A DNA stretch of 31,338 nucleotides from Acidimicrobiia bacterium (GTDB taxonomy: Bacteria; Actinomycetota; Acidimicrobiia; Acidimicrobiales; Aldehydirespiratoraceae). Below, piece after piece: positions 4,248 through 25,411 of this stretch. Below the pieces are notes generated by a model. The model was not told where the DNA came from, made no database searches, and worked only from the letters and a program-made list of their open reading frames with translations. The stretch's first letter is position 1. Each line of letters begins with the position of its first letter. A program made the position numbers and the translations under genes. The stretch is taken from contig JAJDZO010000028.1 of the NCBI GenBank assembly GCA_022824605.1, forward strand, positions 1 through 31,338. The letters run 5' to 3'.

Positions 4248-5627
<1,380 letters not shown>

Positions 5628-5629
5628 CG

Positions 5630-5668
5630 GTGGGGCGCCACGTTCTCGACGATCAGAAAGCGCCCTGA
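5630..5668 (+). CDS. Putative bridging micro-ORF (M)GRHVLDDQKAP (12 aa)
   Basis: GTG 2 nt after purA TGA; TGA 4 nt before purB GTG; lies between degenerate repeats of the purA stop region. Confidence 0.3.
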   Translation: MGRHVLDDQKAP

Positions 5669-5672
5669 CGGC

Positions 5673-9253: not shown

Positions 9254-11107
9254 CTACTGCTGAAGCCGGTCGACGTCGCGCACTGCACCCTTGTCGGCCG
9301 AGGTGGCCATGGCGGCATAGGCCCGCAACGCGGCTGACACCTGGCGGCGGCGGGTCCGTGGCCGCCAGCCGCCGGCGCGCCCGTCCTCGTCGGCCCGGCG
9401 CTGCTCGAGTTCGGCCTCGTCCACCCTCAGATTCACCGTGCGTGCACCGATGTCGATGTCGATCATGTCGCCCTCGCGGATCAGCGCGATCGCGCCGCCT
9501 TCGGCTGCCTCGGGCGACGCGTGGCCGATCGACAGGCCCGACGTCCCGCCCGAGAACCGGCCGTCGGTGAACAACGCGCAATCCTTTCCCAGCCCGCGGG
9601 ACTTGATGTACGAGGTGGGATAGAGCATCTCCTGCATGCCGGGACCGCCTCGGGGACCCTCGTACCGCACGATCACCACATCGCCGGGCTGAATCCCGTG
9701 CTCCTCGTCGAGGATCCCGTCGCAGGCCTCCTCCTGGCTCTCGAACACCCTGGCCGGTCCCGAGAACACCAGAATCGACTCGTCGACGCCGGCGGTCTTG
9801 AGAATGCAGCCGTCAATGGCGATGTTGCCGTAGAGCACGGCCAATCCACCGTCGGCGTTGTACGGGTTGGCCACCGAGCGGATGCAGCCGCCGTCACGGT
9901 CAACGTCGAGCGTCGGCCAGCGGGTGGACTGGCTGAACGCTTCCTGCGTGGGGATGCCGGCCGGTCCGGCTCGGAAGAACTCGACGACATCGCTGGAGGG
10001 ATCGCGCATCACATCCCACACTTCGAGAGCGTCAGCCAGAGTGTCGGAGTGGATCGTGGGCACCGACGTGTCGAGCAGGCCGCCCCGGTCGAGTTCGCCG
10101 AGGATGCCCATGATCCCCCCAGCCCGGTGCACATCCTCGACGTGGTACTCCGCGGTGGACGGTGCCACCTTGCAGATATTGGGGGTGCTGCGGCTGAGCC
10201 GGTCGATGTCGGCCATCGTGAAGTCCACCTCGCCCTCCCGGGCAGCCGCCAGGATGTGCAGCACGGTGTTGGTGGAACCGCCCATGGCGATGTCGAGGCG
10301 CATGGCGTTCTCGAAGGCGGTCTTGGAGGCGATCGAGCGCGGCAGGACCGAATCGTCGTCCTTCTCGTAGCAGCGCCGGGCCAGGTCGACCACCCGACGG
10401 CCCGCCTCGCAGAACAGCTCCCGACGGTCCGAATGGGTGGCCAGCACCGTGCCGTTGCCCGGAAGCGACAGACCGAGCGCCTCGGTGAGGCAGTTCATGG
10501 AGTTGGCGGTGAACATGCCCGAACACGATCCGCAGGTGGGACAGGCCGAGCGCTCCATCTCCAACAGATCCTCGTCGCTCACCGACGAGTCCCCCGCGGA
10601 GATCATCGGGTTGATCAGGTCCAGCTTGACGCTGACCCCGGCCAGTTTCGTCTTGCCTGCCTCCATCGGCCCGCCCGACACGAACACGGTCGGAACATTG
10701 AGCCGCATGGCGGCGATCAGCATCCCCGGCGTGATCTTGTCGCAGTTCGAGATGCACACCAGCGCGTCGGCGCAATGCGCGTTCACCATGTACTCCACCG
10801 AGTCGGCGATCAGATCCCGGCTGGGAAGGCTGTAGAGCATCCCGTCGTGGCCCATGGCAATGCCGTCGTCCACCGCGATCGTGTTGAACTCCTTGGCCAC
10901 ACCGCCCGCAGCCGCGATCTCCTCGGCTACCAGCTTGCCAAGATTGCGTAGATGGACGTGGCCGGGGACGAACTGCGTGAAGGAGTTGGCGATCGCGACT
11001 ATCGGCTTGTCGAAGTCGTCGTCGGTCATGCCGGTGGCTCGCCACAGGGCTCTTGCTCCGGCCATGTTGCGGCCTTGGGTGGTGGTGTGCGATCTGAGGT
11101 TCGCCAT
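9254..11107 (-). CDS. ilvD: Dihydroxy-acid dehydratase
   Basis: [64 protein letters not shown]. Confidence 0.98.
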
Positions 11108-11140
11108 GGATCAACCCTACCGCTCCCGTGTCGGCTCGTT

Positions 11141-11443
11141 CCCGCTGGTGCTTTGTCCCGGTGGGTGCTCTGTCCTGGTGGGTGCTTTGTCCCGGTGGGC
11201 GCTGCGGGTGTCCGCTTGCTCGCACGGGCTTCGCCCTATTTGCTCGCAAGTCGTACCCCCGCATCGCCCGCCTGGGGGGTCGCCCGCCCCGGCGGGTGCT
11301 TTGTCCCGCTGGTGCTTTGTCCCGGTGGGCGCTGCGGGTGTCCGCTTGCTCGCACGGGCTTCGCCCTATTTGCTCGCAAGTCGTACCCCCGTATCGCCCG
11401 CCTGGGGGGTTGCTCCGCGTAGGGGGTTGCTCCGCCTGGGGGG
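11141..11443. repeat. Composite array: 16-17-bp units (GGTGCTTTGTCCCGGTG) plus two copies of a ~83-87-bp element
   Basis: Short units at 11147, 11164, 11181, 11295, 11311; long element at 11198-11284 and 11328-11410; 11181-11280 equals 11311-11410 with one mismatch; G-run tail to 11443. Confidence 0.95.
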
Positions 11444-11472
11444 TCACGCTGCCGCTGGCGAGGGGTTTCCCT

Positions 11473-12840
11473 CTAATGCTGGGTTGGGGTTTTCTTGGTG
11501 GGGGTGAAGTCTGCTGGTAGGTGCTTTATTCCGTGGATGAAGGCTGAGGCTAGGAGTTCGGGGTCGCCGGTGGCTTGGATGTCGGGGATGCGGGTGAAGA
11601 GTTCTTGGAACATCACTTTGATCTGGCGGCGGGCTAGGTGGGCGCCTAGGCAGTAGTGGGGGCCGGGGCCGCCGAAGCCGATGTGGGGGTTCGGGTCGCG
11701 GCGCACGTCGAAGGTCAGCGGATCGTCGAACACCGACTCGTCGCGGTTGGCGCACAGGTAGTTCATCGTCACCATGTCGCCCTCTTGGATCGGCTGGCCC
11801 TCCAGCACGGTGTCGCATTGGGCGGTTCGGCGCATGTATACGACCGGGCTCGCGATGCGCACGATCTCCTCTACCGCGCTGGTGCCCACGGTTTCGAAGT
11901 CGTCGGTCCAGATGCGGCGCTGGTCGGGATGGTCGGTGAGGTACACCAGCCCCCAGCTGATCGAGTTGCGGGTGGTCTCGTTGCCGGCCACCACCAGCAG
12001 GATGAAGAAGCTGGCCAGCTCGGCCCGGGTCAGCCGCTCGCCGTCGACTTCCGCGTTGACGAGGATGCTGGTCAGGTCCTCGGACTCCACGCCGACCTTG
12101 GACTCGGCCACATCGTCCATGAGCTGGGTCAGGGCCTCGCCGGCGGTGAGGATGGCGGTGATCAGGTCGCCGAAGGCAGGCACATACTCCTCGTCGGCTG
12201 CGCCGAGGATGGTGTTCGACTGGTCGAACACGAAATCGTGGTACGACCCCGGGATTCCCATCAGGTCGCAGACGATGCGCAGCGGGAGGCGGGCGGCCAC
12301 GTCGGTCACGAAGTCGCATTCGCCCCGCTCGCAGACCTCGTCCATGATCATCGCGGCCTGGTCGCGGATCGAGTCCTCGAGCCGGGCCAGCATCCGAGGG
12401 GTGAAACCCGCCGACACCAGCCGTCGCAGCCGGGCGTGGCGGGGGTCGTCCATGGCGATGATCGAGTTGAAGTACTCGTTGAACTCGGGCGGGAAGTCGT
12501 TGATGGTGACTCCCCGGGCCGACGAGTAGATCTCAGGCTTGCGAGACACCTCCAGAATGGGCGCGTGACGGGTGATGACCCAGGCGCCCGGCGTCTGAAT
12601 GCTCGACAACTCGCCCGACAACTGGAAGCCGGGAAAGAACGTGAGCGGCTCCGAGCGCAGCCGTGTCAGATCCTCTTCGATGACGCTTCGGTGGCGTCTC
12701 CAGAAGACGTTGTGGATCGGGTTGTGCGGATCCGGCTCGGTGGCAGGAGCCGGCCTGGCGGTCGCTTCCGGCGGGCGCTGCGGGTGTCCGCTTGCTCGCA
12801 CGGGCTTCGCCCTATTCGCTCGCAAGTCGTACCCCTGCAT
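11473..12840 (-). CDS. Cytochrome P450, CYP124/CYP125-like
   Basis: ITIND-like segment and EYF..IIAMDDPRHARLR, AGNETT, EEIVR, FGGPGPHYCLG heme Cys; only in-frame starts (ATG 12840, GTG 12879) lie inside the repeats. Confidence 0.9.
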   Translation of the reverse strand: MQGYDLRANRAKPVRASGHPQRPPEATARPAPATEPDPHNPIHNVFWRRHRSVIEEDLTRLRSEPLTFFPGFQLSGELSSIQTPGAWVITRHAPILEVSRKPEIYSSARGVTINDFPPEFNEYFNSIIAMDDPRHARLRRLVSAGFTPRMLARLEDSIRDQAAMIMDEVCERGECDFVTDVAARLPLRIVCDLMGIPGSYHDFVFDQSNTILGAADEEYVPAFGDLITAILTAGEALTQLMDDVAESKVGVESEDLTSILVNAEVDGERLTRAELASFFILLVVAGNETTRNSISWGLVYLTDHPDQRRIWTDDFETVGTSAVEEIVRIASPVVYMRRTAQCDTVLEGQPIQEGDMVTMNYLCANRDESVFDDPLTFDVRRDPNPHIGFGGPGPHYCLGAHLARRQIKVMFQELFTRIPDIQATGDPELLASAFIHGIKHLPADFTPTKKTPTQH

Positions 12841-12930
12841 CGACCGCCTGGGGGGTCGCCGTTGTTCGCTGGGTTGCACGGGCGTTGCCCTGTCTCGCTC
12901 GCAAGTCGAATTCCCGCATCGCCCGCCTGG
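12774..12930. repeat. Third copy (12774-12860) and degenerate fourth copy (12876-12930) of the 87-bp element
   Basis: Same orientation as 11198-11284 with few substitutions. Confidence 0.95.
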
Positions 12931-12948
12931 CCTGTGGCGTTGTCAGAG

Positions 12949-13024
12949 TGGTGGTCGGGCGCGGCGTCGATCCGCGGACCTTCCGCTTTTCAGGCGGACG
13001 CTCTGCCAACTGAGCTACCCGACC
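12949..13024 (-). tRNA. tRNA-Phe(GAA)
   Basis: Reverse complement GGTCGGGTAGCTCAGTTGGCAGAGCGTCCGCCTGAAAAGCGGAAGG...CCCGACCACCA; CCA encoded. Confidence 0.96.
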
Positions 13025-13056
13025 GGGGTAGTCGCCGGCCCCGGAGGGCGACAACG

Positions 13057-13131
13057 CGGTCCTGACGGGATTTGAACCCGCGGCCTCCACCTTGACAGGG
13101 TGGCGATCACTCCAGACTGATCTACAGGACC
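13057..13131 (-). tRNA. tRNA-Asp(GTC)
   Basis: GGTCCTG acceptor stem, anticodon loop CTGTCAA, T-loop TTCAAAT; CCA not encoded. Confidence 0.96.
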
Positions 13132-13186
13132 GTTCGCACGCTGGGCGTGCGGAAACAGAAACGCTAGCGATCAGCGCGACTGCTCG

Positions 13187-13259
13187 CACCCCCAACGGGA
13201 TTCGAACCCGTGTTACCGGCGTGAAAGGCCGGCGTCCTAGGCCGCTGGACGATGGGGGC
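13187..13259 (-). tRNA. tRNA-Glu(TTC)
   Basis: GCCCCCA acceptor stem, anticodon loop CTTTCAC, T-loop TTCGAAT. Confidence 0.96.
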
Positions 13260-13359
13260 CCGCCGGTGTTCGCCGACGGCACCAGCCTACCGCGCTGACA
13301 GCCCGGCCCAGAACGTGCGCTATCGGCCTCAGACCTCTGGGCGGGCGGCCTTCGGGGTT

Positions 13360-13845
13360 CTAGTCGTCGGTGCCGGGAGGCAGGGTTCCGGCTGCGGTGC
13401 TCACCAGTTGATCGAGCAGGCCGCCCAGCCATTCGTAGAGCATGTAGCGGGCCGCTTCATGAGGCTGCTCGCCCGGTCGTGGCGGATCGAACGTGGCCGC
13501 TCCGACCTCGAGCGTGTTGCCCAGGTAGAGGCGCAGGCTGTTGAGGGTCTGAATCCAGGCGGACACCGCCTCGTCGTCCAATGCGGCCCCGGCCAGTCCG
13601 GCCTCGACCACATCAAGGGACTCCAACCGGTGCCGCAGCAGGGGTCCAGCGGCCATCTCCCAGAACTCGTCGGAGGCCCTGGGGTCGTGGATGTGTACCG
13701 GCGGCTGGAAGCGCAGCATCGACGCGTCGGTGCCCTCCAGGAGCAACTGCCGGAACTGCTCGAGCACCGCGGCCAGGCCCGAGCGCTCTTCGTCGCGCAG
13801 GTTCACCCGGATGCCGTCGGGGCCGACCCGGAATCGGCGTGCCAT
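13360..13845 (-). CDS. DUF2017-like protein (typical clpS neighbour in actinobacteria)
   Basis: LLRFQPP..DPRASDEFWEM...W..TLNSLRLYLG..L...Y.WLG.LLDQLV pattern; downstream of clpS. Confidence 0.8.
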   Translation of the reverse strand: MARRFRVGPDGIRVNLRDEERSGLAAVLEQFRQLLLEGTDASMLRFQPPVHIHDPRASDEFWEMAAGPLLRHRLESLDVVEAGLAGAALDDEAVSAWIQTLNSLRLYLGNTLEVGAATFDPPRPGEQPHEAARYMLYEWLGGLLDQLVSTAAGTLPPGTDD

Positions 13846-13874
13846 CAGCGACCAGCTCCGGGCACCGCGAGCAT
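13845..13874 (-). CDS. Putative bridging micro-[12 protein letters not shown] (9 aa)
   Basis: TGATG overlap with clpS stop and TGATG overlap with DUF2017 start. Confidence 0.4.
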   Translation of the reverse strand: MLAVPGAGR

Positions 13875-14245
13875 CAGTCCTGCTCGAGGATGGCCCACAG
13901 GCCGTGTTCGTGGAGCCGGTACACGTCGAATTCGGCCTTCTCGCGCTGTCCCGACGCCACCACCGCCCTGCCCTCGGTGTGGACCTGCATCATCAGCCGG
14001 TGAGCCTTCTGCTGCGAATAGCCGAACAGTTTGCGGAACACGTAGGTGACATACGACATCAGGTTGACCGGATCGTCGAGCACGATCACTTTCCACGGTG
14101 AGTCGGGCCTCCGATCGGCAACGTCCACCGGATCCTTCACCGGCGACGTGACCGGTGCAGAGGCCGAGCTTGCGAGACCGTGGGCAGCGGCGCTGTGACT
14201 TGGGCGGCCCGTGAGCGAAGCGAACAAGAGCGGGCGTGACCTCAT
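13874..14245 (-). CDS. clpS: Clp protease adaptor ClpS
   Basis: [46 protein letters not shown]; ATG overlaps ctaA TGA; start could be a later GTG. Confidence 0.92.
14204..14234. repeat. 31-bp REP-like element
   Basis: GCGGCCCGTGAGCGAAGCGAACAAGAGCGGG; 30/31 identical to 23728-23758. Confidence 0.85.
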
Positions 14246-15271: not shown

Positions 15272-16180
15272 GTGACCGGAACCGTGACCGGCGAGGTACG
15301 CGCCCCTCGCCGAGCCCGTGCCGTGGCCTTCGTGGCCCTCACCAAGCCCCGGATTGTTGAACTGCTGCTGGTCACCACCGTCCCGTCGATGATCCTGGCC
15401 GAAGGGGGCCTGCCGTCGGTGTGGCTGATCGCGGCCACCTTGGTCGGCGGAGCGATGTCGGCCGGCGGCGCCAACGCATTGAACATGTACGTCGACCGAG
15501 ACATCGACCGGCTCATGCACCGCACCCGCAACCGACCTCTGGTCACCGGAGCCGTTCGCGACACCGAGGCGATCGTGTTCGCGACGACCCTCACGGCCGG
15601 CTCCTTCGTGTGGCTGTGGGCCTTCGTGAACCTGCTCTCGGCGGCGCTGGCCACGGCCGCGGCTGCGTTCTACGTGTTCGTCTATTCGCTGTGGCTCAAA
15701 CGCACCTCCATCCGCAACATCGTGATCGGCGGCGCGGCCGGGGCTGTGCCGACGCTGGTGGGCTGGACCGCGGTCACCGGTTCGCTCGACTGGCCTCCGG
15801 TAGTGCTGTTCGCGGTGATCTTCTACTGGACTCCGCCCCACTTCTGGGCTCTGGCGATCCGCTACCGCAGCGACTATCAGGCCGCCGACGTCCCCATGCT
15901 TCCGGCGGTGTCAGGACTGCGGCCCACCGCTCGCCGCATCTTCGCCTACACGGTGGTGCTGGTGGCGTTCACGTTCCTGCTGGTGCCGGTGGCCGCAATG
16001 GGCGCCTTCTATCTGGTGGCCGCGGCCGTCAGCGGGGCCGGCTTCGTGGGCCTGGCACTCGACGTGCTGCGCCGGCCCGACGCCACCCGGGCGATGCGGT
16101 TGTTCGGCTGGTCCAACGCTTACGTGACGCTGCTGTTCGGCGCAGTCGCGGCCGACGTGCTCCTCCGTAACGGGTTCTAG
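15272..16180 (+). CDS. ctaB: Protoheme IX farnesyltransferase (heme O synthase)
   Basis: LTKPRIV, DRDIDRLMHRTRNRPL, NIVIGGAAG, WTPPHFWAL, DYQAADVPMLP. Confidence 0.96.
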   Translation: MTGTVTGEVRAPRRARAVAFVALTKPRIVELLLVTTVPSMILAEGGLPSVWLIAATLVGGAMSAGGANALNMYVDRDIDRLMHRTRNRPLVTGAVRDTEAIVFATTLTAGSFVWLWAFVNLLSAALATAAAAFYVFVYSLWLKRTSIRNIVIGGAAGAVPTLVGWTAVTGSLDWPPVVLFAVIFYWTPPHFWALAIRYRSDYQAADVPMLPAVSGLRPTARRIFAYTVVLVAFTFLLVPVAAMGAFYLVAAAVSGAGFVGLALDVLRRPDATRAMRLFGWSNAYVTLLFGAVAADVLLRNGF

Positions 16181-16296: not shown

Positions 16297-17844
16297 ATGA
16301 CGCTGACCGAACCGGCCATCGCGGACTCCGAGGCCTCCCTCGCGGCCGGCGGCGCTGACGCGCCGTCGGCGTCGACGCAACCGGTGGCGACCCACCCGGT
16401 TTTGGCCCAGCCCTTCGTCACCAGCGATGCGACGACGGTCGGCCGTCTGTTCGTGGTGGCCTCGCTGCTGCTGGCCCTGGGCACTTCGGTGATCGGTGCG
16501 CTGCTCTCGTTCGGACGCACCGAGGCGGTCGACCCGGCGGACATGTTCGGCGGCCTCAACGCCTATTTCCGCATGTGGACCCTGTACCGGGTGTCGTTCA
16601 TGCTGCTGGTGGTGCTGCCCCTGCTGCTCGGCGTGGCCATGGCGGTCGTGCCCTCGCAGGTGGGGGCGGGCAACCTCGCTTTCCCCCGGGCTGCGCTGGC
16701 GTCGTTCTGGACGTGGAAGATCGGTGCGCTGATCGTCGTGGTGTCGGTGTTCGCCGGCGGGGGCTGGGGCGCCGTCGACGGCGTGACCGGCAACGAGAAC
16801 GACGCCATCGCGCTCACGCTGCTCGGCACCGCCATGGTGATCGTGGCGCTGCTCGTCGGCGCAGTGTGTGTGGCCACCACCGTGATCTCGCTGCGCCAGA
16901 CAGGCATGAGCCTGCTGAACGTTCCGCCCTTCGCGTGGTCGATGCTGGTGTCTGCCGCGGTGTGGCTGTTCACGCTGCCCGTCGCCATCGCCAACATCGT
17001 GGTGATCTACGCCGACCTGCGGGGCCGGCCCGCGATCGCCTTCGGCCGCGCCGAGGGCCCCGACATCTGGCAGCAACTCGACTGGCTGGTGGAGCAGCCG
17101 GCCGTCTACCTCATGGCCGTGCCGGTGCTCGGCATAGTCTTCGAGTCCGTCGGTGCCGCGGTCGGAGGTCGAACGAGTCGTCCCGAGATTTTCGCCGTCG
17201 TCGTGGGCCTGTTCGGACTGCTGGCCGTGGGCGGTTGGGCCCAGGACTACTTCACCGCTCCCCAGGACCTGCGAGACGGTCTGGTTTATGTGGCCTTCGG
17301 GCTGGCTGCGGTGCTTCCGATAGTGGCGCTGGCCGGCGGCGCCGGCGAACTGGTGCTGCGGGGCACAGCCACGCCGGAGCGGCTCCTCGACGCCCGCACG
17401 GTTGGTGCAGGCTCGGCTCTCAAGCTTCTCGGCGCGGCCGCGCTGGTGGGCGCCCTGCGCGTTGTCGAGCCCTTTGATCTGCTTGAGACGGCGGCCACTT
17501 GGGCTGTCTTCCACGGGGTGGTCGTCGCAGGCCTCGTGGCCGGGGTGACTGCGCACCTGACTTGGCCGGACAGGCTGCTGACCGGCTCAATCTCGCAGAT
17601 CCTCGGTCGGGGCACCGTCGTGCTTCTGATGGTGGGCGGCGGACTGCTCGTGGTCACCGATCTGATCTCGGGGTTCGCGTCCGACGATCAGGACCTGATG
17701 GCCCTCGCGCTGGACGTCAACGTGACGTTCAACGTGATCAACCTCATCGGATCGGTTCTGGTAGTGGCCGGTCTGGCTGCGGCTCTGGCTGCGATGGCAA
17801 CCGCTCGGCGAACCGCCACCGTGACGGGGCGTAGAGCGTCATGA
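16297..17844 (+). CDS. Degenerate cytochrome c oxidase subunit I paralog lacking most metal ligands
   Basis: Aligns by eye with CtaD (TLYRV/TMHGV, GNLAFPR/RDVAFPR, WLVEQPAVY/WIFGHPEVY, GWAQDYF/VWAHHMF, WAVFH/VAHFH); intact 515-aa ORF. Confidence 0.85.
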   Translation: MTLTEPAIADSEASLAAGGADAPSASTQPVATHPVLAQPFVTSDATTVGRLFVVASLLLALGTSVIGALLSFGRTEAVDPADMFGGLNAYFRMWTLYRVSFMLLVVLPLLLGVAMAVVPSQVGAGNLAFPRAALASFWTWKIGALIVVVSVFAGGGWGAVDGVTGNENDAIALTLLGTAMVIVALLVGAVCVATTVISLRQTGMSLLNVPPFAWSMLVSAAVWLFTLPVAIANIVVIYADLRGRPAIAFGRAEGPDIWQQLDWLVEQPAVYLMAVPVLGIVFESVGAAVGGRTSRPEIFAVVVGLFGLLAVGGWAQDYFTAPQDLRDGLVYVAFGLAAVLPIVALAGGAGELVLRGTATPERLLDARTVGAGSALKLLGAAALVGALRVVEPFDLLETAATWAVFHGVVVAGLVAGVTAHLTWPDRLLTGSISQILGRGTVVLLMVGGGLLVVTDLISGFASDDQDLMALALDVNVTFNVINLIGSVLVVAGLAAALAAMATARRTATVTGRRAS

Positions 17845-17891
17845 TCGCATCCGCCTGCCCAGCCGCCGTGACGGGGCGTAGAGCGTCGTGA
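17841..17891 (+). CDS. Putative bridging micro-ORF MIASACPAAVTGRRAS (16 aa)
   Basis: Between 22-bp direct repeats at 17819 and 17866; ATGA overlap upstream, GTGA overlap downstream. Confidence 0.4.
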   Translation: MIASACPAAVTGRRAS

Positions 17892-18472
17892 GAACGACCG
17901 CTTTGCCGGTGCCCGAGGCGACTCGGCCCCGTACGGTCGTGGTCGGTGCCCTGCTGGGCGCCGCCGCCGCATTCATCGTCTTCGCCGGCCTCGTGTCGGT
18001 GTACGTCCAGCAGCGTCAGGCCGCTCGGGCCGCGGGCACCGAATGGTTCCCGGAGGGCAGCGTCGAACTCGGTCCGGCCGGGATGATGATGATGACGCTG
18101 GCGCTGTCGATGGTGACCGTGCAGTGGGCGGTTCAGGCCGCCCGCACCGAGGATCGGCCCCACGGGTTCATCGCGCTGGGAGTCACCCTGCTGTTCGGCG
18201 CGTCGGTCGTCAACCAGTTCTGGTTCGTGTACGCCGACACCGGCTTCGCCATCGACGGCGGGCGGGCCGAGCTGTTGTTCTACGCGGTGACCGGCTCGTT
18301 CGTCGCCATGCTGATCATCGGCATGGCCATGATGGTGGTCGCCACCGTGCGTTCGCTGATGGGGCCCTTCGGGCGAGAACTGGCCCACGGCGTGCAAGCG
18401 GCCGCCGCCTACTGGCACATGTGCGTGCTGAGCTACTTCATCGTCTGGTACGTCGTGTTCATCACCAAGTAG
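17888..18472 (+). CDS. Divergent cytochrome c oxidase subunit III-like protein
   Basis: Five hydrophobic segments colinear with CtaE; YWHMCV vs YWHFVD; the SE and GFHGxH motifs are absent. Confidence 0.8.
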   Translation: MRTTALPVPEATRPRTVVVGALLGAAAAFIVFAGLVSVYVQQRQAARAAGTEWFPEGSVELGPAGMMMMTLALSMVTVQWAVQAARTEDRPHGFIALGVTLLFGASVVNQFWFVYADTGFAIDGGRAELLFYAVTGSFVAMLIIGMAMMVVATVRSLMGPFGRELAHGVQAAAAYWHMCVLSYFIVWYVVFITK

Positions 18473-18479
18473 GAAGCTC

Positions 18480-19277
18480 GTGTTCACCACCGGATTCAAG
18501 TTCTTCTTCGGACTGTTCGCAGCGTTCTGCGTGGCCGCGCTCGCCTACGGCTACACCACCGGCGGCAACCATGTCGGGCCGCTCTCGCTGGGCTGGAAGG
18601 GCGGCGTCGGCGACCACATCGGTTACGGCGTGCTCGTGGCGCTGGCCGCGGCCTCGTTGACGGTCAGCTTGGTGCTGGTGTCGTTCCGCGACGCCGACGC
18701 GGCCGCTCAGGCCCATCTGCAGAACCTGGCCGAAGTGATGACCGACCAACCGGTGACCCCCAGCTTCTGGCCGGTGGTGGCCTCCTTCGGTGTGGGAGCG
18801 ACCGCGGTGGGGCTGGTGCTGCACCCCATGGTGTTCGTGCTCGGGCTGACCCTCGTCACGCTGGCGCTGGTGGAGTGGACCATGGACGCCTGGGCTGATC
18901 GTGCCACCGGCGACATCGAGGCCAACCGGGAACTGCGCAACCGGATCATGGCCCCCATCGAGATCCCCGTGGTCGGAGCGCTCGCCGTCGGCGTGGTGGT
19001 GCTGGCGGCCTCGCGGATCCTGCTGACCGTGTCACAGCTCGAGGCGGTGACCGTTGCCGGTGTGGTGTCCGCCCTCATCCTGGGCGGCGCCTGGGTGTAC
19101 GCAACCCGGCCCGGACTCGGCCGCCGGCTGATGCGAACCCTGGGGGTGGTCGGCGCGTTGCTGCTGCTGATCGGCGGAGTGCTGGCCGCGGTCGCAGGCG
19201 AGCGAGACTTCGCACACCATGAACACGAGACGCACGAAGAACACGGCGAGCCGACCGGTGGTGATCACGGTGGCTGA
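18480..19277 (+). CDS. Membrane protein resembling actinobacterial oxidase subunit CtaF, with C-terminal extension
   Basis: N-terminal F..F.....YG helix and PSFWP motif followed by two helices, similar from memory to mycobacterial CtaF (SPHSWWP); His-rich tail. Confidence 0.55.
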   Translation: MFTTGFKFFFGLFAAFCVAALAYGYTTGGNHVGPLSLGWKGGVGDHIGYGVLVALAAASLTVSLVLVSFRDADAAAQAHLQNLAEVMTDQPVTPSFWPVVASFGVGATAVGLVLHPMVFVLGLTLVTLALVEWTMDAWADRATGDIEANRELRNRIMAPIEIPVVGALAVGVVVLAASRILLTVSQLEAVTVAGVVSALILGGAWVYATRPGLGRRLMRTLGVVGALLLLIGGVLAAVAGERDFAHHEHETHEEHGEPTGGDHGG

Positions 19278-19278
19278 T

Positions 19279-20505
19279 ATGCGAAGGACCGCCGGGCGAC
19301 TCCTGGCCGCTGCGCTGACGCTGGCCGGCGTGGCCGTGGCCACCGGATGCGCATCCGACGCCGAACTCGACACGTTCGCTCCTCAGGGCCCGATCGCCAA
19401 AGAACTACACAGCCGCGGCGTGCTGCCGGTGTTCTGGATCGCGGCGGTGGTGTTCGTGGGCATCACCATCGCCATGGTCTGGCTCATCTGGAAGAACCGG
19501 GTCCGCAACTACGACGGCGACGACGAATGGCCTGCGCAGACCCACGGCCATGTGCCGCTGGAGGTGGGCTGGACCGTGGGGTTCCTGCTCACCATGATCG
19601 CGGTGGCGGGCATCATGCTGTGGTCGCTGCCCACCGTGGACGCCACCGAGGACAACACCATGGTCGTCAGCATCGACGACCGCAGCGTCACCTGGGAACC
19701 GACCGTCGTGGTGGTGGGCAACCAGTGGTGGTGGGAGTTCCGCTACTACTTCTCGGACCAGGTGGACCTCGCCGACCTGCGGGCCCACGGCGACGCCAAG
19801 ACCCTGCCCCCCGCCGACATCGTGACCTCCGGTCAGATGGTGATCCCAACCGGCGAGGAGGTCGAGCTGATCATCACGTCGCGTGACGTGATCCACTCGT
19901 TCTGGATCCCGGCGCTCAACGGCAAGCGCGACGCGGTTCCCAATCGCTTCTCACCATGGAAGATCGAGGCCTCCGATCCGGGCTTCTACTTCGGGCAGTG
20001 CACCGAGTTCTGCGGCCTGTCACACTCGCGCATGAGGATGCAGGCGGTGGCGCTGACCCCGGCCGACTTCCAGACGTGGGTGGACCGCACCAGCGCCGAC
20101 GCGGTGGAGCCGACCGATCCCGAGGCGCTGGCGGGCATGGAGGTGTTCGCGGGCATCTGCACCTCGTGCCATGTGGTGGAAGGAGTCAACGACGATGTGT
20201 TCGAGAGAGCGGATCAGGCCTCCGGGGCCGCTCCCAACCTGACCCACTTCGCCAACCGCAGCACCTTCGCGGGCGGGATCCTCAACACCTACAACGCCGA
20301 CGGGTCGCTCAACCGCACCGACCTCGAGGCGTGGCTGCGAGACCCCGGCGCCCTCAAGGAGAACTACACGGTGCCCGGCGAGCAGTACCGGGGCATGCCC
20401 GACCTCGACCTGAGCGAACAGCAGATCGACGATCTCGTGGCCTACCTTTCAGGCCTGGGCGCCAAGCCCGCCGGCTGGATAATCGAAGCGACCCAGGTGG
20501 AGTGA
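19279..20505 (+). CDS. ctaC: Cytochrome c oxidase subunit II with fused cytochrome c (caa3 type), lipoprotein
   Basis: Lipobox VATGC; CuA ligands DVIHSFW and CTEFCGLSHSRM; CTSCH heme c motif and GMP axial Met. Confidence 0.96.
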   Translation: MRRTAGRLLAAALTLAGVAVATGCASDAELDTFAPQGPIAKELHSRGVLPVFWIAAVVFVGITIAMVWLIWKNRVRNYDGDDEWPAQTHGHVPLEVGWTVGFLLTMIAVAGIMLWSLPTVDATEDNTMVVSIDDRSVTWEPTVVVVGNQWWWEFRYYFSDQVDLADLRAHGDAKTLPPADIVTSGQMVIPTGEEVELIITSRDVIHSFWIPALNGKRDAVPNRFSPWKIEASDPGFYFGQCTEFCGLSHSRMRMQAVALTPADFQTWVDRTSADAVEPTDPEALAGMEVFAGICTSCHVVEGVNDDVFERADQASGAAPNLTHFANRSTFAGGILNTYNADGSLNRTDLEAWLRDPGALKENYTVPGEQYRGMPDLDLSEQQIDDLVAYLSGLGAKPAGWIIEATQVE

Positions 20506-20506
20506 A

Positions 20507-22498
20507 ATGGCCATAACTGAGCAGCCACCGCTCGAACTAGGCCCCGGCGACGCCGTCCGCTACGCCGAGAAGCCTCTCGGCGTGTTCACCCGTCCCCAAC
20601 AGGGTCGGGGATGGCGCGACTGGCTCAGCACGGTCGACCACAAGCGCATCGGCATCCTGTACGGCGCCTCGGCCATGTTCTTCTTCCTCGTCGGTGGCAT
20701 CGAAGCGCTGCTGATCCGCCTTCAGTTGGCCGCCCCCGAGGGCTCGGTGCTCAGCGCCGACGTCTACAACCAGGTGTACACGATGCACGGCGTCACCATG
20801 GTGTTCCTGTTCATCATGCCGCTGGCCGCCGCTTTCGCGAACTACTTCATCCCGCTGCAGATCGGCGCCCGAGACGTGGCCTTCCCCCGCCTCAACGCGC
20901 TTTCGTTCTGGATCTGGCTGTCGGGCGCCATCTTCTTGAACACGTCGTGGATCGTGGGCGGCGGCGGGGCCGACTGCGGCTGGTTCTGCTACTCCACCAA
21001 CAGCGGTGTGGCCTTCTCGCCCAGCCACGGCGTGGACTTCTACGCCATCGGCCTGCAGATACTGGGCATCGCCTCGCTGGTGTCGTCGGTGAACCTGATC
21101 GTGACCTGCCTGAACATGCGAGCGCCCGGCATGACGCTGATGCGGATGCCGGTGCTCACCTGGATGCTGCTGATCACCCAGTTCCTGTTGCTGTTCGCGC
21201 TGCCGGTGATCACCGTGGCGTTGTTCCTGCTGATGTTCGACCGGCTCTTCGACGCCCAGTTCTTCAATCCTGACGCGGGCGCCGATCCGCTGCTGTGGCA
21301 GCACTTATTCTGGATATTCGGCCATCCCGAGGTGTACATCATCATCCTGCCCGCGTTCGGGGTGGTGTCGGAGATCATCCCCACCTTCAGCCGCAAGCCG
21401 CTGTTCGGCTACGAGTTCATGGTGTTCTCGGGCATAGCCATCGGCTTCATGGGCTGGGGGGTGTGGGCCCACCACATGTTCGTGTCGGGCATAGGCCCCA
21501 TCTCGGTGGCCGCCTTCTCGTTGTCGACCATGTTCATCGCAGTGCCGACGGGGGTGAAGGTTCTCAATTGGCTTGCCACGATGTGGGGCGGGAAGTTGAG
21601 ATTCACGGTGGCCATGAAGTTCGCGGTGGCCACGGTGGCCATGTTCACCATCGGCGGTCTGTCCGGCGTGACCCACTCGGTGGCCCCGGCCGACACCCAG
21701 CAGACCGACACCTACTACATCGTGGCCCACTTCCACTATGTGATCTTCGGTGGCGGCGTGCTCGGCCTGTTCGCGGGCATGTACTTCTGGTGGCCGAAGA
21801 TCTGGGGGCACTTCCTCAACGAGCGGATCGGCAACTGGCATTTCTGGATCATGCTGGTGGGCTTCAACCTCACCTTCGGACCGATGCACATTCTGGGCCT
21901 GCAGGGCATGTCGCGCCGGATCGACACCTACGCGCGGGGATACGGCTTCGAGTTCTGGAACATGGCGGCCACGGTCGGATCGCTGCTGATCGCGGTGGCG
22001 GTGCTGCTGTTCATCTGGAACGTGGTCAAGTCCAAACGCGACGCCCCCCATCTGCCGCTGCCGGGGCCGGACCCGTGGGACAGCCGCTCCCTCGAATGGT
22101 CGATCCCGTCGCCGGTGCCGGTCCACAACTTCGACACCGTGCCGCAGGTCCACAGCCGCGACGACTGGTGGCACACCAAGTACGCCGAGAACGACGAGGG
22201 CAAGGTGGTGCGGGTGGCCACCGCCGAAGAGGCCGCCCAGACCGGCGAGGCGACCGGCGTACATCTGCCGTCGCCGTCGTTCTGGCCGTTGGCGGTGGCC
22301 GTGGGCCTGCCGTTGATCGGCTACGGCCTGATCTTCAGCCTCTGGTTGGCGCTGATAGGCGCGCTGGTGACGATCGCGTCGCTCTACTCGTGGGCCATGG
22401 AACCAGTAGACGACCCCGACGCCACCCACGACCACCACGACGAAGACCACGAAGACGACAAGAACGAGGACGACCAAGCCGGAGGTCACGACTCATGA
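20507..22498 (+). CDS. ctaD: Cytochrome c oxidase subunit I, A1 type
   Basis: All six His ligands (TMHG, GHPEVY, WAHHM, AHFHY), D-channel DVAFPRLN, K-channel PTGVK; two extra C-terminal helices (PSPSFWP). Confidence 0.98.
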   Translation: MAITEQPPLELGPGDAVRYAEKPLGVFTRPQQGRGWRDWLSTVDHKRIGILYGASAMFFFLVGGIEALLIRLQLAAPEGSVLSADVYNQVYTMHGVTMVFLFIMPLAAAFANYFIPLQIGARDVAFPRLNALSFWIWLSGAIFLNTSWIVGGGGADCGWFCYSTNSGVAFSPSHGVDFYAIGLQILGIASLVSSVNLIVTCLNMRAPGMTLMRMPVLTWMLLITQFLLLFALPVITVALFLLMFDRLFDAQFFNPDAGADPLLWQHLFWIFGHPEVYIIILPAFGVVSEIIPTFSRKPLFGYEFMVFSGIAIGFMGWGVWAHHMFVSGIGPISVAAFSLSTMFIAVPTGVKVLNWLATMWGGKLRFTVAMKFAVATVAMFTIGGLSGVTHSVAPADTQQTDTYYIVAHFHYVIFGGGVLGLFAGMYFWWPKIWGHFLNERIGNWHFWIMLVGFNLTFGPMHILGLQGMSRRIDTYARGYGFEFWNMAATVGSLLIAVAVLLFIWNVVKSKRDAPHLPLPGPDPWDSRSLEWSIPSPVPVHNFDTVPQVHSRDDWWHTKYAENDEGKVVRVATAEEAAQTGEATGVHLPSPSFWPLAVAVGLPLIGYGLIFSLWLALIGALVTIASLYSWAMEPVDDPDATHDHHDEDHEDDKNEDDQAGGHDS

Positions 22499-22596
22499 AC
22501 GCCGCCGCACTGACCGCACCCCGCGGCGAAAGGGGCGGCGCCGAGTGGCGGCGACCGGCGAGCAGGGCGAAGCGCGTGCGGGGGATCCAGCCATGA
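22495..22596 (+). CDS. Putative bridging micro-ORF (33 aa) containing a repeat-family fragment
   Basis: MNAAALTAPRGERGGAEWRRPASRAKRVRGIQP*; CATGA at both 22494 and 22592. Confidence 0.4.
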   Translation: MNAAALTAPRGERGGAEWRRPASRAKRVRGIQP

Positions 22597-23231
22597 GCGC
22601 GGAACCCCTGATGGCTGAGGTCGACCACGCAGTCGACGCCGACGGTCACGATCACGATCCTCACGCCACTACCACCGGCCTGTCGCACACCAAGCTGGCC
22701 ATGTGGGTGTTCCTGGGTTCGGAATGCCTGCTCTTCGGCGGGCTGATCTCCACCTACCTGCTGTACAAGACCCGCGGCAACGGCCGCACGCTGCCCACCG
22801 ACGTGTTCGACATCCCGTTCACGTCGGTGAGCTCGTTCGTGTTGCTGATGAGTTCGCTCACCATGGTTCTGGCCCTCTCAGCGGTGTCGCGCGGCGAACC
22901 GGAGGCCGGCCGCACCTGGCTGTTGGCCACGGCCCTGTTGGGCGGCGTGTTCGTCGGCGGGCAGGTATACGAGTTCACCGCATTCGTGCGTGAGGGGGTG
23001 GCCTTCACCACCAACCCGGCCAGCAGCGCCTTCTTCACCCTCACCGGCTTCCACGGCGTGCATGTGAGCCTCGGCATCGTGATGCTGATGTCGTTGTTCG
23101 TCGCCTCGCTGAAGGGCAAGCTCACTCAACGCAACTCCGAGACGGTTGAGATCGTCGGCCTCTACTGGCACTTCGTGGACATCGTGTGGATCTTCATCTT
23201 CACGGTGATCTACCTGATTCCCGCCGACTGA
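22593..23231 (+). CDS. ctaE: Cytochrome c oxidase subunit III
   Basis: WVFLGSECLLF, LTGFHGVHV, GLYWHFVDIVW. Confidence 0.96.
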   Translation: MSAEPLMAEVDHAVDADGHDHDPHATTTGLSHTKLAMWVFLGSECLLFGGLISTYLLYKTRGNGRTLPTDVFDIPFTSVSSFVLLMSSLTMVLALSAVSRGEPEAGRTWLLATALLGGVFVGGQVYEFTAFVREGVAFTTNPASSAFFTLTGFHGVHVSLGIVMLMSLFVASLKGKLTQRNSETVEIVGLYWHFVDIVWIFIFTVIYLIPAD

Positions 23232-23235
23232 CCCC

Positions 23236-23322
23236 ATGAGCAATACCCTCACATGACCGACACGATCCGATGACCGACCCCATTGCCATGAGCGACCCGA
23301 TCCGATGACCGACACCGTTGCC
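23236..23322 (+). repeat. Five degenerate 17-18-bp ATGA-initial tandem units encoding three chained micro-ORFs
   Basis: Units at 23236, 23253, 23270, 23288, 23305; ORFs MSNTLT*, MTDTIR*, MTDPIAMSDPIR*. Confidence 0.85.
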
Positions 23323-23658
23323 TACGATCATTCCGAAGCGGCTGCCACCGCCGGCGAGCACCATGACGAGGAGGGCCATTCCCACCCGTCGGACTGGGCC
23401 TACGTCAAGATCGCCATCGCTCTCGCCGTCATCACCGCGCTCGAGGTGTTCACCTACTTCGAGACGGTTCTCGACTGGGGCGTGGCGCTGGTGCCGTCGC
23501 TGATCTTCATGATGATCGTCAAGTTCTATTTGGTGGCCACCTGGTTCATGCACCTGCGCTTCGACAGCAAGCTGTTCGGCCGGATGTTCAGCGCCGGTCT
23601 GATCCTGGCTGTCGGCGTGTATCTGGTGACCCTGACGGTCTTCGAATTCTGGGTGTAG
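23305..23658 (+). CDS. Cytochrome c oxidase subunit IV (caa3/QoxD-like)
   Basis: Three helices; YVKIAIALAVITALE, K..LVA.WFMHLRFD motif. Confidence 0.9.
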   Translation: MTDTVAYDHSEAAATAGEHHDEEGHSHPSDWAYVKIAIALAVITALEVFTYFETVLDWGVALVPSLIFMMIVKFYLVATWFMHLRFDSKLFGRMFSAGLILAVGVYLVTLTVFEFWV

Positions 23659-23727
23659 CCCAGAGGCCGAGCGGGTGAACAGCATCCATGCGAGTCTCGC
23701 GACGAGTTCAGCGAGGCCGTGGCCCGA

Positions 23728-23758
23728 GCGGCCCGTGAGCGCAGCGAACAAGAGCGGG
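23728..23758. repeat. 31-bp REP-like element
   Basis: 30/31 identical to 14204-14234; ends 2 nt before ctaG ATG. Confidence 0.85.
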
Positions 23759-23760
23759 AC

Positions 23761-24669
23761 ATGGTGAGCGCGCTGGCCGCGACCGACGCCTGGCGCTTCC
23801 AGTTCCACCCGGAGGTGTGGCTGATGGTGGCCGCGGTGGTCGGCCTCGGCTTCTACGTGGTCCGTGTGGTGGCCCCGGTCGCCGCTCCGGCCGCAACGGA
23901 GGCCGTTGGTAGGCGCCAGCGGCTGTGCTTCGTCGCCGGTGTTGTGCTGCTTTGGGTGTCGGCGGACTGGCCCATGCACGACATCGCCGAGGAGTACCTC
24001 TACTCGGTGCACATGGTGCAGCACCTGCTCATCAGCTTCGTGGTGCCGCCGCTGCTGCTGATGGCTGTGCCTGAATGGCTGGCCCGGCTGATCCTGGTCG
24101 AGGATTCCCGCACGGCGAGGGTCATTCGCCGTCTGGTGCATCCGCTGGTGGCCGGGGTGGTCTTCAACGCGCTGCAGGGGTTGATGCACTGGAGCACTCT
24201 GGTGGAGTATTCGGTGCGCAGCGGCCCCTTCCACTACGCCATGCACCTGCTGATGTTCGCCAGCGCGCTGGCCATGTGGATGCCCGTGGTCGGACCGCTG
24301 CGGGAGCTGCACCTCTCGGAGCCGATGAAGATGGTGTACCTGTTCGCCATGTCGATCGTGCCGACCGTGCCGGCCGCCTGGCTCACCTTCGCGGAGGGCT
24401 CGGTCTACCCCGTCTACGACCACGCCCAACGGCTGTGGGGCATCTCGGTGACGGCCGATCAGCAGGCGGCCGGCGCGGTGATGAAGGTGCTGGGCGGCCT
24501 CTACCTGTGGACTCTCATAGCCATCCGGTTCTTCCGCTACTCGACCGCGCAGCGCCACGCCGACGCGGCCGAGCGACGCCGGCGCCTCGCGGCCGACACC
24601 ATCACCACCGCCGATGTGGAGGCCGAGTTCGAGCGACTGGGACCCCCGCCCACCGAACCCCGTCTCTAG
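23761..24669 (+). CDS. ctaG: caa3-type oxidase assembly factor CtaG
   Basis: WPMHDIAEEYLYSVHMVQHLL..PPLLL, HLLMF..A..MW.PV, DQQAAG..MK. Confidence 0.92.
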   Translation: MVSALAATDAWRFQFHPEVWLMVAAVVGLGFYVVRVVAPVAAPAATEAVGRRQRLCFVAGVVLLWVSADWPMHDIAEEYLYSVHMVQHLLISFVVPPLLLMAVPEWLARLILVEDSRTARVIRRLVHPLVAGVVFNALQGLMHWSTLVEYSVRSGPFHYAMHLLMFASALAMWMPVVGPLRELHLSEPMKMVYLFAMSIVPTVPAAWLTFAEGSVYPVYDHAQRLWGISVTADQQAAGAVMKVLGGLYLWTLIAIRFFRYSTAQRHADAAERRRRLAADTITTADVEAEFERLGPPPTEPRL

Positions 24670-24844
24670 CGCGGCCGAGCGACGCCGCAGCCCCGGTCCG
24701 TCGAATCGGGTAAAAGTTGATCGGATTTGTCGGGTTTCGGCGTGGAAACCTCTACAGTGCGTTGTCACCGGCGCGACCGAGGCGCGCAGCCCCGAGGTCG
24801 TGCCGGCCATTTCCCGCCACCGACTAGAGGAGACGACCAACACC

Positions 24845-25411
24845 ATGACCACTGCAACCGCAACCGCAACCGTCGACAACGGCGTCAACGTCCAACACCT
24901 GTTGGGGGCTCGTGAAGCCCTCTCCGAGGCACGCGACGCGGCCCAGTTCACCTGGAAGGCCACCAACGAGTGGATCAACGGCACCCACAGCCGATCCTCG
25001 GTGGACAGCTACCACGGGCTCGGCGCCGAGCACCAGCATCGTTCCGCTTTCAGCTTCGAGGCCGATCACCCCCTGGTGTTCGGCGCGGAGGACAACGCAG
25101 CCACTCCCGTCGAGCTGGTACTGGCCGGGCTGGCCAGCTGCCTCACCGCCGGCGTGGCCGCCGTGGCCCAGAACCGTGAGATCCAACTGCGGTCGGTGAA
25201 GGCCACCCTCGAGGGCAGCATGGACATCCTGGGAATCCTCGGCGGCGACCCCGACGTCCGCAACGGGTTCAACGACGTGAAGGTCTCCTACGACATCGAC
25301 GCCGACGCCACGCCCGACGAGATCCGGGCGCTGGTGGCGCAGTCCCAGAAGCGGTCGGCGGTGTACGACATCATCACCAACCCGACCAACGTCAGCGTCG
25401 AGGTCAACTGA
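24845..25411 (+). CDS. OsmC/Ohr-fold protein with a single cysteine
   Basis: AGGAGA RBS; ADHP..FG..NA.TPVE..LAGLASCLTAG, GILG.DPDVRNGF, SQKRSAV. Confidence 0.88.
   Translation: MTTATATATVDNGVNVQHLLGAREALSEARDAAQFTWKATNEWINGTHSRSSVDSYHGLGAEHQHRSAFSFEADHPLVFGAEDNAATPVELVLAGLASCLTAGVAAVAQNREIQLRSVKATLEGSMDILGILGGDPDVRNGFNDVKVSYDIDADATPDEIRALVAQSQKRSAVYDIITNPTNVSVEVN

Follow-up and report, generated by a model that had tools for sequence, protein, structure and literature searches.

A candidate non-catalytic partner of a caa3 oxidase encoded by three divergent oxidase genes in Acidimicrobiia

We analyzed a 31,338-nucleotide stretch of DNA from an Acidimicrobiia bacterium of the order Acidimicrobiales (assembly GCA_022824605.1, contig JAJDZO010000028.1), which we call the window. 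It carries a run of seven genes at positions 16297 to 23658, all on the plus strand. We found that the first three encode a subunit I paralogue without its metal ligands (I'), a divergent subunit III (III'), and a composite CtaF-like protein (X), and that they stand immediately in front of the genes for a complete caa3 oxidase. We suggest that I', III', and X may be a non-catalytic structural partner of the working caa3, a reading of the sequences to which we give about an even chance. An earlier note on this DNA had described a degenerate subunit I, a degenerate subunit III, and a PSFWP protein ahead of ctaC (with fused heme c), ctaD, ctaE, and the subunit IV gene on one strand with short spacers. 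Our check of the open reading frames gave the same coordinates, and the family scores agree with that description.

RESULTS

I' lacks the metal ligands of subunit I

I' (515 amino acids; 16297-17844, plus strand) is a paralogue of subunit I with the 12-helix COX1 fold. It matches PF00115 with 106.3 bits (cutoff, 34.8) over profile positions 2 to 435 of 436, and TIGR02891 with 135.8 bits, far below the cutoff of 670.75. The real CtaD of the same operon (20507-22498, plus strand), which has all ligands, scores 510 bits and 680.7 bits, respectively, the latter above the cutoff. The two proteins are 24% identical (E 3e-29), with I' aligned over its whole length. The C-terminal two-helix extension of the real CtaD is absent from I'.

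We used the alignment with CtaD to locate the metal ligands. Five of the six ligand histidines are gone from I', and the six positions read Y, Q, Q, D, V, and H. The full ligand pattern is Y/Q/Y/Q/D/V/H in I' and H/H/Y/H/H/H/H in the real CtaD. Thus, the heme a histidine of transmembrane helix 2 (TM2) is a tyrosine, the three CuB histidines are Gln, Gln, and Asp, and the heme a3 histidine is lost. The proton channels are altered as well: in the D-channel, Asp is replaced by Asn and Glu by Ala, and the K-channel Lys is a hydrophobic residue. The one histidine left at a ligand position, the TM10 ligand of heme a, is Asn, Ala, or Leu in most relatives. We found no invariant histidine column in an alignment of 30 members of the I' family. 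Because the heme and copper ligands have been lost, the module cannot catalyze oxygen reduction.

The I' family has conserved features of its own. Polar residues are conserved at the former CuB positions (Gln, Gln, and Asp in the window's clade), and an invariant Arg lies beside the former heme a ligand. Helices 2 to 7 are far more conserved than helices 8 to 12, the site of the lost heme ligands. Public records name homologues of I' "cytochrome c oxidase subunit I" or "cbb3-type subunit I."

III' is a divergent subunit III

III' (194 amino acids; 17888-18472, plus strand) is a five-helix paralogue of subunit III. It matches PF00510 with 43.5 bits (cutoff, 23.8) over profile positions 78 to 254 of 258, which correspond to the five-helix C-terminal core, and it is 26% identical to the real CtaE. 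Where the real CtaE has its GFHGxH motif, III' has GSFVAM, and the III' family conserves motifs of its own in the family alignment. The best NCBIfam model for III' is aa3_CtaE_Actin (43.2 bits against a cutoff of 190). The same model is the best match for 18 of 21 members of the III' family.

X joins a CtaF-like domain to the anchor of a cupredoxin

X (265 amino acids; 18480-19277, plus strand) matched no Pfam or NCBIfam family above threshold, and its homologues are named "hypothetical protein" in public records. The earlier note had called this protein CtaF-like. This was borne out when we aligned X by hhalign with a profile of ten actinobacterial CtaF sequences: residues 6 to 137 match profile positions 5 to 124 of 130, nearly the full length of CtaF, with 93.6% probability (E 2e-7). 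The match to PF12270 covers positions 8 to 125 of 132 and stays below the cutoff (14.8 bits, E 0.03; cutoff, 26.9). The PSFWP segment of X also resembles the extension at the C terminus of the operon's real CtaD (E 3e-5). CtaF has four helices, the last two of which replace helices 1 and 2 of subunit III (PMC8361435). In the CtaF-like four-helix domain of X (residues 1-137; 18480-18890, plus strand), the PSFWP hairpin forms helices 3 and 4, matching helices 1 and 2 of the seven-helix subunit III. A profile search of the PDB with the X family gave weak matches only (E 0.027 to 0.26), to the N-terminal hairpin of the COX3 chains 7jro_c and 1m56_C; these help in reading the PSFWP motif and prove nothing alone.

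With 265 residues, three extra helices, and a tail, X exceeds the stand-alone CtaF, which has four helices in about 130 to 140 residues. The composite nature of X had been missed by the earlier note. Residues ~146 to 240 (18915-19199, plus strand) form a three-helix anchor domain with the motif ANRxLRNRIMAPIEIP. We found that this part shares homology with the N-terminal segment that anchors a cupredoxin in the membrane; in other orders of Acidimicrobiia, the gene for that cupredoxin comes after ctaG. The X profile matches sequences of those orders only partially, at profile positions ~142 to 255 (E 1e-15 to 1e-6). By BLASTP, X matches one such cupredoxin, at L013 8851-9570, with E 2e-11; that protein carries PF00127/PF13473. 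Residues 241 to 265 of X and the stop codon (19200-19277, plus strand) make up a His/Glu-rich tail (GERDFxHH...) that is recognized in the family alignment and predicted to lie outside the cell. We infer that the N terminus of X is inside and the tail outside, from homology to helices 1 and 2 of subunit III and to the cupredoxin anchor and not from a dedicated topology predictor. The alignment of 25 X sequences has 51 invariant columns.

Taken together, the catalytic residues are lost, and each part of the module has a recognizable homologue. This supports the idea, put forward in the earlier note, that the three genes encode a cofactor-less second membrane core.

Some relatives encode a longer X. 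Long-form X proteins (344 to 418 amino acids) were found in 22 of the genomes of the order examined, 19 of them from one family (f3), and 19 of the 22 end in a domain with a conserved ...VPGV...VVP terminus. The model of this C-terminal domain has a cupredoxin fold (pLDDT 84.7), and its top PDB matches are all cupredoxins (amicyanin, copper nitrite reductase, and laccase). The domain lacks the copper ligand set (H..C..H..M) in the long-form proteins examined. We also considered whether this end of the protein could be a degenerate subunit II and found no support for the idea, since no COX2 chain appears among the 50 best structural matches. From its sequence, the window's X is a short form, with the tail in place of the cupredoxin-like domain, and domain scans of it found no cupredoxin domain with His-Cys-His-Met ligands.

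Two of the anchored cupredoxins of other orders lie right after ctaG in caa3 operons (L013 8851-9570 and L014 8111-9235) and have the type 1 copper motif HNV...YYCSIPGHAATM; these proteins have both the cupredoxin domain and its copper ligands. In those lineages, such a protein may serve caa3 as a dedicated electron donor or as a partner. The L013 operon (genome G244) is unusual in another respect: its real ctaD is present as two overlapping open reading frames at 4886-7038 (PF00115 positions 1 to 306 and 308 to 436), which may reflect a frameshift, a fault in the assembly, or a subunit I that is truly encoded in two pieces.

Besides the tail of X (19200-19274), the window encodes two further tails rich in His, Asp, and Glu, at the C terminus of CtaD (22400-22495) and the N terminus of CtaE (22545-22670). 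Their sequences are THDHHDEDHEDD, DHAVDADGHDHDPH, and, for X, HHEHETHEEH. A comparable tail is found at the N terminus of an aa3-type CtaD in a sister family (L145). Such tails may bind metal; by the predicted topology, that of X would lie outside the cell and those of CtaD and CtaE inside.

The module is linked to caa3 genes across the order

We surveyed 83 related loci and found the order ctaB-I'-III'-X-ctaC-ctaD-ctaE-IV-ctaG in them as far as the contigs reach. L114 alone departs from this, with no ctaC called in the interval from X to ctaD. The gene ctaB is directly before I' at every locus whose contig extends there; in the relatives, ctaA is divergent upstream and ctaG lies downstream. 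Genes within the run overlap by 1 to 4 nt in several relatives, and the reading frames of I', III', and X are intact in all loci. This gene order is far beyond chance. The three genes always co-occur with one another and with the caa3 genes, and the module is genetically locked to caa3. Two findings that the earlier note had named as refuting its idea, separation of the three genes in relatives and a lack of CtaF homology in X, were not observed. At L114, a distant module-bearing locus, neither a subunit IV gene nor ctaG follows ctaE (10325-14121).

Genome counts here are samples of groups in which related genomes are not independent. We found a full-length X in 58 of 75 sampled genomes of the order. 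Among the genomes sampled from the rest of the class, none had it, and only the anchor part occurs there. The distribution of I' is the same. When 1.84 billion representative sequences were searched with an I' profile, at least 150 clusters (50% identity) scored above 196 bits; almost all are of full length, with 500 to 600 amino acids. The module also occurs in the Microthrix lineage (L087). By the names of homologues and related contigs, the window belongs to Acidimicrobiales. The nearest records are labeled Candidatus Aldehydirespirator or Aldehydirespiratoraceae, and many are sponge-associated metagenome-assembled genomes. Three genomes are flagged as unpublished, G345 and G301 (tree rows L120 and L121) and G275 (in the I' tally), and no conclusion rests on them.

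Two matches contain in-frame TAG codons: there is one inside an X match (G286:C50:9601-10230) and two inside a cytochrome b match (G003:C1:2314738-2315139). These could be sequencing errors, pseudogenes, or recoding.

The module genes are under purifying selection

We compared the module with the real oxidase genes over the same distances. Where CtaD is 77 to 82% identical, I' is 39 to 48%, III' 44 to 53%, X 50 to 59%, and CtaC 48 to 58% identical. Thus, X is better conserved than CtaC, and the sequence of I' changes more quickly than that of the real CtaD. In comparisons with twelve close loci, we obtained dN/dS values of 0.19 to 0.31 for I', 0.17 to 0.24 for III', and 0.14 to 0.28 for X, compared with 0.07 to 0.12 for ctaD and 0.12 to 0.36 for subunit IV. 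From these values we concluded that I', III', and X are under purifying selection and that the constraint on I' is looser than that on the real enzyme.

In three metatranscriptome runs (coral, marine, and sponge), we found contigs matching I', III', and X at ~84 to 95% identity. Depth over these genes is similar in magnitude to that over ctaC and ctaD, and one contig crosses the X-ctaC junction. These data are compatible with coexpression and are not proof of it.

In the same material, one region at 23442-23758, which is mainly the spacer between the subunit IV gene and ctaG (23659-23718), had depths of ~3,500 and 13,000 in two runs against ~30 to 150 elsewhere. The contigs there have many loose ends and small indels. 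The region looks like a short repeat common to many genomes or loci, and it is probably the dispersed palindromic element of the earlier note.

I' forms its own clade, and its ligands were lost stepwise

The earlier note had raised a grouping of I' with actinomycete aa3 CtaD, and our tree does not recover it. All I' sequences group in a single clade (support, 100) with a long stem, which falls within neither the 12-helix aa3 nor the 14-helix caa3 clade of Actinomycetota; tree rows L149, L151, and L153 were disregarded as wrong reading frames. The stem joins where the aa3 and caa3 clades meet, and with an unrooted tree and a long branch neither can be named as the sister clade. We also considered that I' might be a recent copy of the neighboring ctaD. 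A tree forcing I' together with the order's own caa3 CtaD was worse by 67 log-likelihood units and was rejected (p-AU 0.013), so I' did not arise as such a copy; the constrained group was defined after the first tree had been seen, and long branches are involved. Other features point to an aa3-type ancestor of the module, namely, the 12 predicted helices of I', the separate CtaF-like part, and the closeness of III' to aa3_CtaE_Actin. The I' tree gives no confirmation of such an ancestor.

Within the I' clade, nine early-branching lineages keep the TM2 and TM10 histidines of heme a, and three of these (P0329, P0287, and P0318) also keep the heme a3 histidine. The CuB histidines are gone almost everywhere in the family. 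Because early-branching lineages still hold heme histidines, the ligands must have been lost stepwise while the genes stayed. In the window's clade, the function under selection therefore needs no heme.

Some families of the order have no module: I' is absent from families f4, f5, f10, and f16. One f4 genome (G029) has the classical actinobacterial set, with a ctaC without cytochrome c, a 12-helix ctaD, and ctaF in one cluster and ctaE-qcrC-qcrA-qcrB in a second. This genome and two others from module-free families (G143 and G231) have a single COX1 hit, which is of the aa3 type, so they have no caa3. In two further genomes (G267 and G083), the module, caa3, and aa3 occur together.

The module adjoins a complete caa3 operon

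The genes run in the order ctaB-I'-III'-X-ctaC-ctaD-ctaE-IV-ctaG on the plus strand, and the successive spacers from I' to the subunit IV gene are 43, 7, 1, 1, 46, and 73 nt. This count takes ctaC from the ATG at 19279, 1 base past the stop codon of X. A longer ctaC open reading frame from 19219 would overlap X by 59 nt. That overlap is probably not real, because the ATG at 19279 opens the lipobox-like signal peptide of CtaC (LAGVAVATGC). We found no terminator-like sites between the genes of the run. The assembly is 85.7% complete in 410 contigs and has two COX1-like and two COX3-like genes; both pairs are in this run.

Upstream, the module adjoins ctaB for heme O synthase (15272-16180, plus strand; NF003349, 395.8 bits; PF01040). 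Downstream, ctaC (19279-20505, plus strand) encodes the real subunit II with a fused cytochrome c (PF00116, PF00034, and TIGR02866 at 149 bits). The C-terminal PSFWP extension of CtaD, of two helices, includes a PF12270 match on residues 575 to 632. The gene ctaE (22545-23231, plus strand) encodes a real five-helix subunit III with GFHGVHV present (PF00510, 68.4 bits; CyoC/QoxC models, ~148 bits). It is followed by the gene for a caa3 subunit IV of the COX4_pro type (23305-23658, plus strand; PF03626, 34.5 bits; TIGR02229, 30.9 bits) and by ctaG for a caa3-type assembly factor (23719-24669, plus strand; PF09678 [Caa3_CtaG], 140.7 bits). The description of this oxidase as Bacillus-style caa3 holds in its c-fused subunit II, the two-helix extension of subunit I, the COX4_pro subunit IV, and Caa3_CtaG.

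An open reading frame after ctaG (24614-25411) has an OsmC-like domain only in residues ~142 to 264. Over the first 140 residues it has no match, and this part overlaps the 3' end of ctaG; the true start therefore probably lies further downstream.

DISCUSSION

We propose that I', III', and X would be a non-catalytic "ghost" of the membrane core of an aa3-type oxidase. According to this model, the three proteins would assemble with one another as CtaD, CtaE, and CtaF do in the actinobacterial aa3 oxidase, and the assembly would sit in the membrane beside the working caa3. The second half of X would connect it to caa3; in other Acidimicrobiia, this part holds a blue-copper protein of the operon in the membrane beside the oxidase. 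The module is kept by purifying selection and would be transcribed with the caa3 genes. We infer that the three proteins form one complex, that it binds caa3, and that its role is structural, in stability, packing, or supercomplex architecture. A more specific version, which we put somewhat short of an even chance, is a heterodimer of a live and a dead oxidase in which the cofactor-free I'-III'-X is docked beside caa3 through the anchor half of X. I' would then be the first pseudoenzyme catalytic subunit of the superfamily, with ligands lost in the order CuB, heme a3, heme a.

Several points weigh against this proposal. In other orders of Acidimicrobiia, caa3 operons do without the module, and oxidases of this type therefore do not generally need it. 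Early-branching I' members with heme histidines may still bind heme and do something redox related. X modeled alone (AlphaFold2, 25 sequences) reached only pLDDT 57.1 and pTM 0.37, which is not usable. Some of the signal in the RNA runs could stem from DNA, and the contigs in question belong to relatives of this organism (~84 to 95% identical) and carry no strand information.

Among other explanations, we think it unlikely, though less so than those that follow, that the module is a biogenesis factor, that is, a transient scaffold or chaperone for caa3 assembly that is not in the finished enzyme. In one form of this idea, CtaC or CtaE would be held, or heme A or copper handed over, until the mature CtaD replaces the module. 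Biogenesis would fit the placing of the genes, which follow the gene for heme O synthase and precede those for the oxidase subunits; ctaG lies downstream and, in relatives, a divergent ctaA lies upstream. The His/Glu-rich tail of X, predicted to be outside, and the cupredoxin-like end in sister families could both handle copper, and a dead subunit I is a plausible mould for partner subunits. However, I' has no conserved cluster of His, Cys, or Met for heme or copper, and the cupredoxin-like domain of long-form X is without its H..C..H..M ligands. The same type of caa3 is assembled without the module in other orders, and three proteins with ~24 helices are large for a chaperone. More doubtful still is an adaptor, a role that the earlier note had suggested beside that of a pseudo-dimer partner, in which the core would bridge caa3 and the quinol-oxidizing complex III through its CtaE'- and CtaF'-type surfaces. 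In the Mycobacterium smegmatis supercomplex, the main contacts of complexes III2 and IV are those of CtaE and CtaF with QcrB, and in the Flavobacterium supercomplex of alternative complex III (ACIII) and oxidase the contacts run through subunit III (PMC8361435). The module keeps exactly the CtaE- and CtaF-type subunits. The window's genome has a cytochrome b gene, and a genome of the same family (G271) has a split b6-type complex III, a Rieske protein, and cytochrome c. That complex III, however, is of the split b6/subunit IV type and not the mycobacterial long QcrB, and the split type is also found in other orders that have caa3 without the module. We therefore rejected the complex III type as a correlate of the module, since it does not discriminate. 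Moreover, the sampled genome with the classical ctaE-qcrCAB, G029, has no module, and the module never adjoins complex III genes in the loci examined. In G271, the complex III genes (L111 4977-9345) encode cytochrome b6-like, subunit IV-like, and Rieske proteins and a 439-residue cytochrome c; they are flanked by a gene for a 4Fe-4S ferredoxin-like protein upstream and by nuoA downstream.

Slightly less probable than the adaptor is an independent membrane function built on the oxidase fold (a channel, a sensor, or a lipid- or quinone-binding protein), for which the link to caa3 would be regulatory only. The conserved Gln, Gln, and Asp at the CuB sites and the invariant Arg suggest a new selected interior and not random fill, and the early lineages hold heme histidines. 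Against this, both proton channel signatures are gone, the position inside the cta genes is strict across the 83 loci, and the module is absent from the three sampled genomes without caa3. Finally, the module could be the decaying, functionless remnant of a duplicated oxidase, which we regard as very improbable. The stepwise loss of ligands across the family and the low identity of I' relative to ctaD at equal distance would be expected of decay. The frames are intact in all loci, however, dN/dS is well below 1, the I' family spans at least 150 clusters at 50% identity, and X outdoes CtaC in conservation over the same distances. Decay is contradicted by these data on selection and conservation.

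Few membrane enzymes have been studied as closely as the heme-copper oxidases, whose subunit I is taken to be defined by its sites for heme and copper. No example is known to us of a heme-copper oxidase with a catalytic subunit I turned cofactor free. In full-text literature searches, we found no published description of an I'-III'-X module or of a cofactor-free subunit I. A large, selected subunit I family without metal sites, encoded within the operon of an oxidase, would represent a novel type of accessory module in respiration. The series of I' proteins, from those that keep heme ligands to those without any, is also a natural experiment on the non-catalytic scaffold roles of this fold, such as packing, lipid binding, and supercomplex formation. 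Furthermore, because I' is annotated as oxidase subunit I in public records, counts of terminal oxidases in Acidimicrobiia genomes are inflated, including those of abundant marine, sponge-associated, and activated-sludge lineages.

Paralogues without chemistry are known elsewhere in respiration. Mitochondrial complex III keeps catalytically inactive, peptidase-like core proteins as subunits, and NorE is a stand-alone subunit III-like protein. The module resembles these cases in that chemistry-less paralogues would be kept as structural or accessory subunits of a respiratory enzyme. The nearest described system is the aa3 core of actinobacteria, CtaD/CtaE/CtaF (M. smegmatis, PDB 6HWH; Corynebacterium glutamicum), in which CtaE and CtaF of M. 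smegmatis together make up subunit III (PMC8361435). The same core is present as the classical system, ctaC-ctaD-ctaF plus ctaE-qcrCAB, in module-free families of the order. The module shares its architecture, with twelve helices in the subunit I protein, five in the CtaE counterpart, and four in the CtaF-like part. Unlike the aa3 core, the module has no subunit II partner and has lost all CuB ligands and, in the window's clade, the heme ligands and the D- and K-channel residues as well. Its CtaF' is fused to three more helices, I' branches outside the aa3 clade, and the module scores far below the NCBIfam cutoffs.

The neighboring Bacillus-style caa3, with its 14-helix CtaD, shares an operon, a superfamily, and the PSFWP hairpin motif with the module. 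It differs in that I' has only 24% identity to its CtaD and is without the two-helix extension. The type 1 copper cupredoxins of L013 and L014 have the same three-helix anchor as X, with the motif NRI(L/M)xP(I/L)xIP, and are likewise encoded in a caa3 operon. In X, by contrast, the anchor sits behind a CtaF-like domain, and in the window's X it is followed by a tail only.

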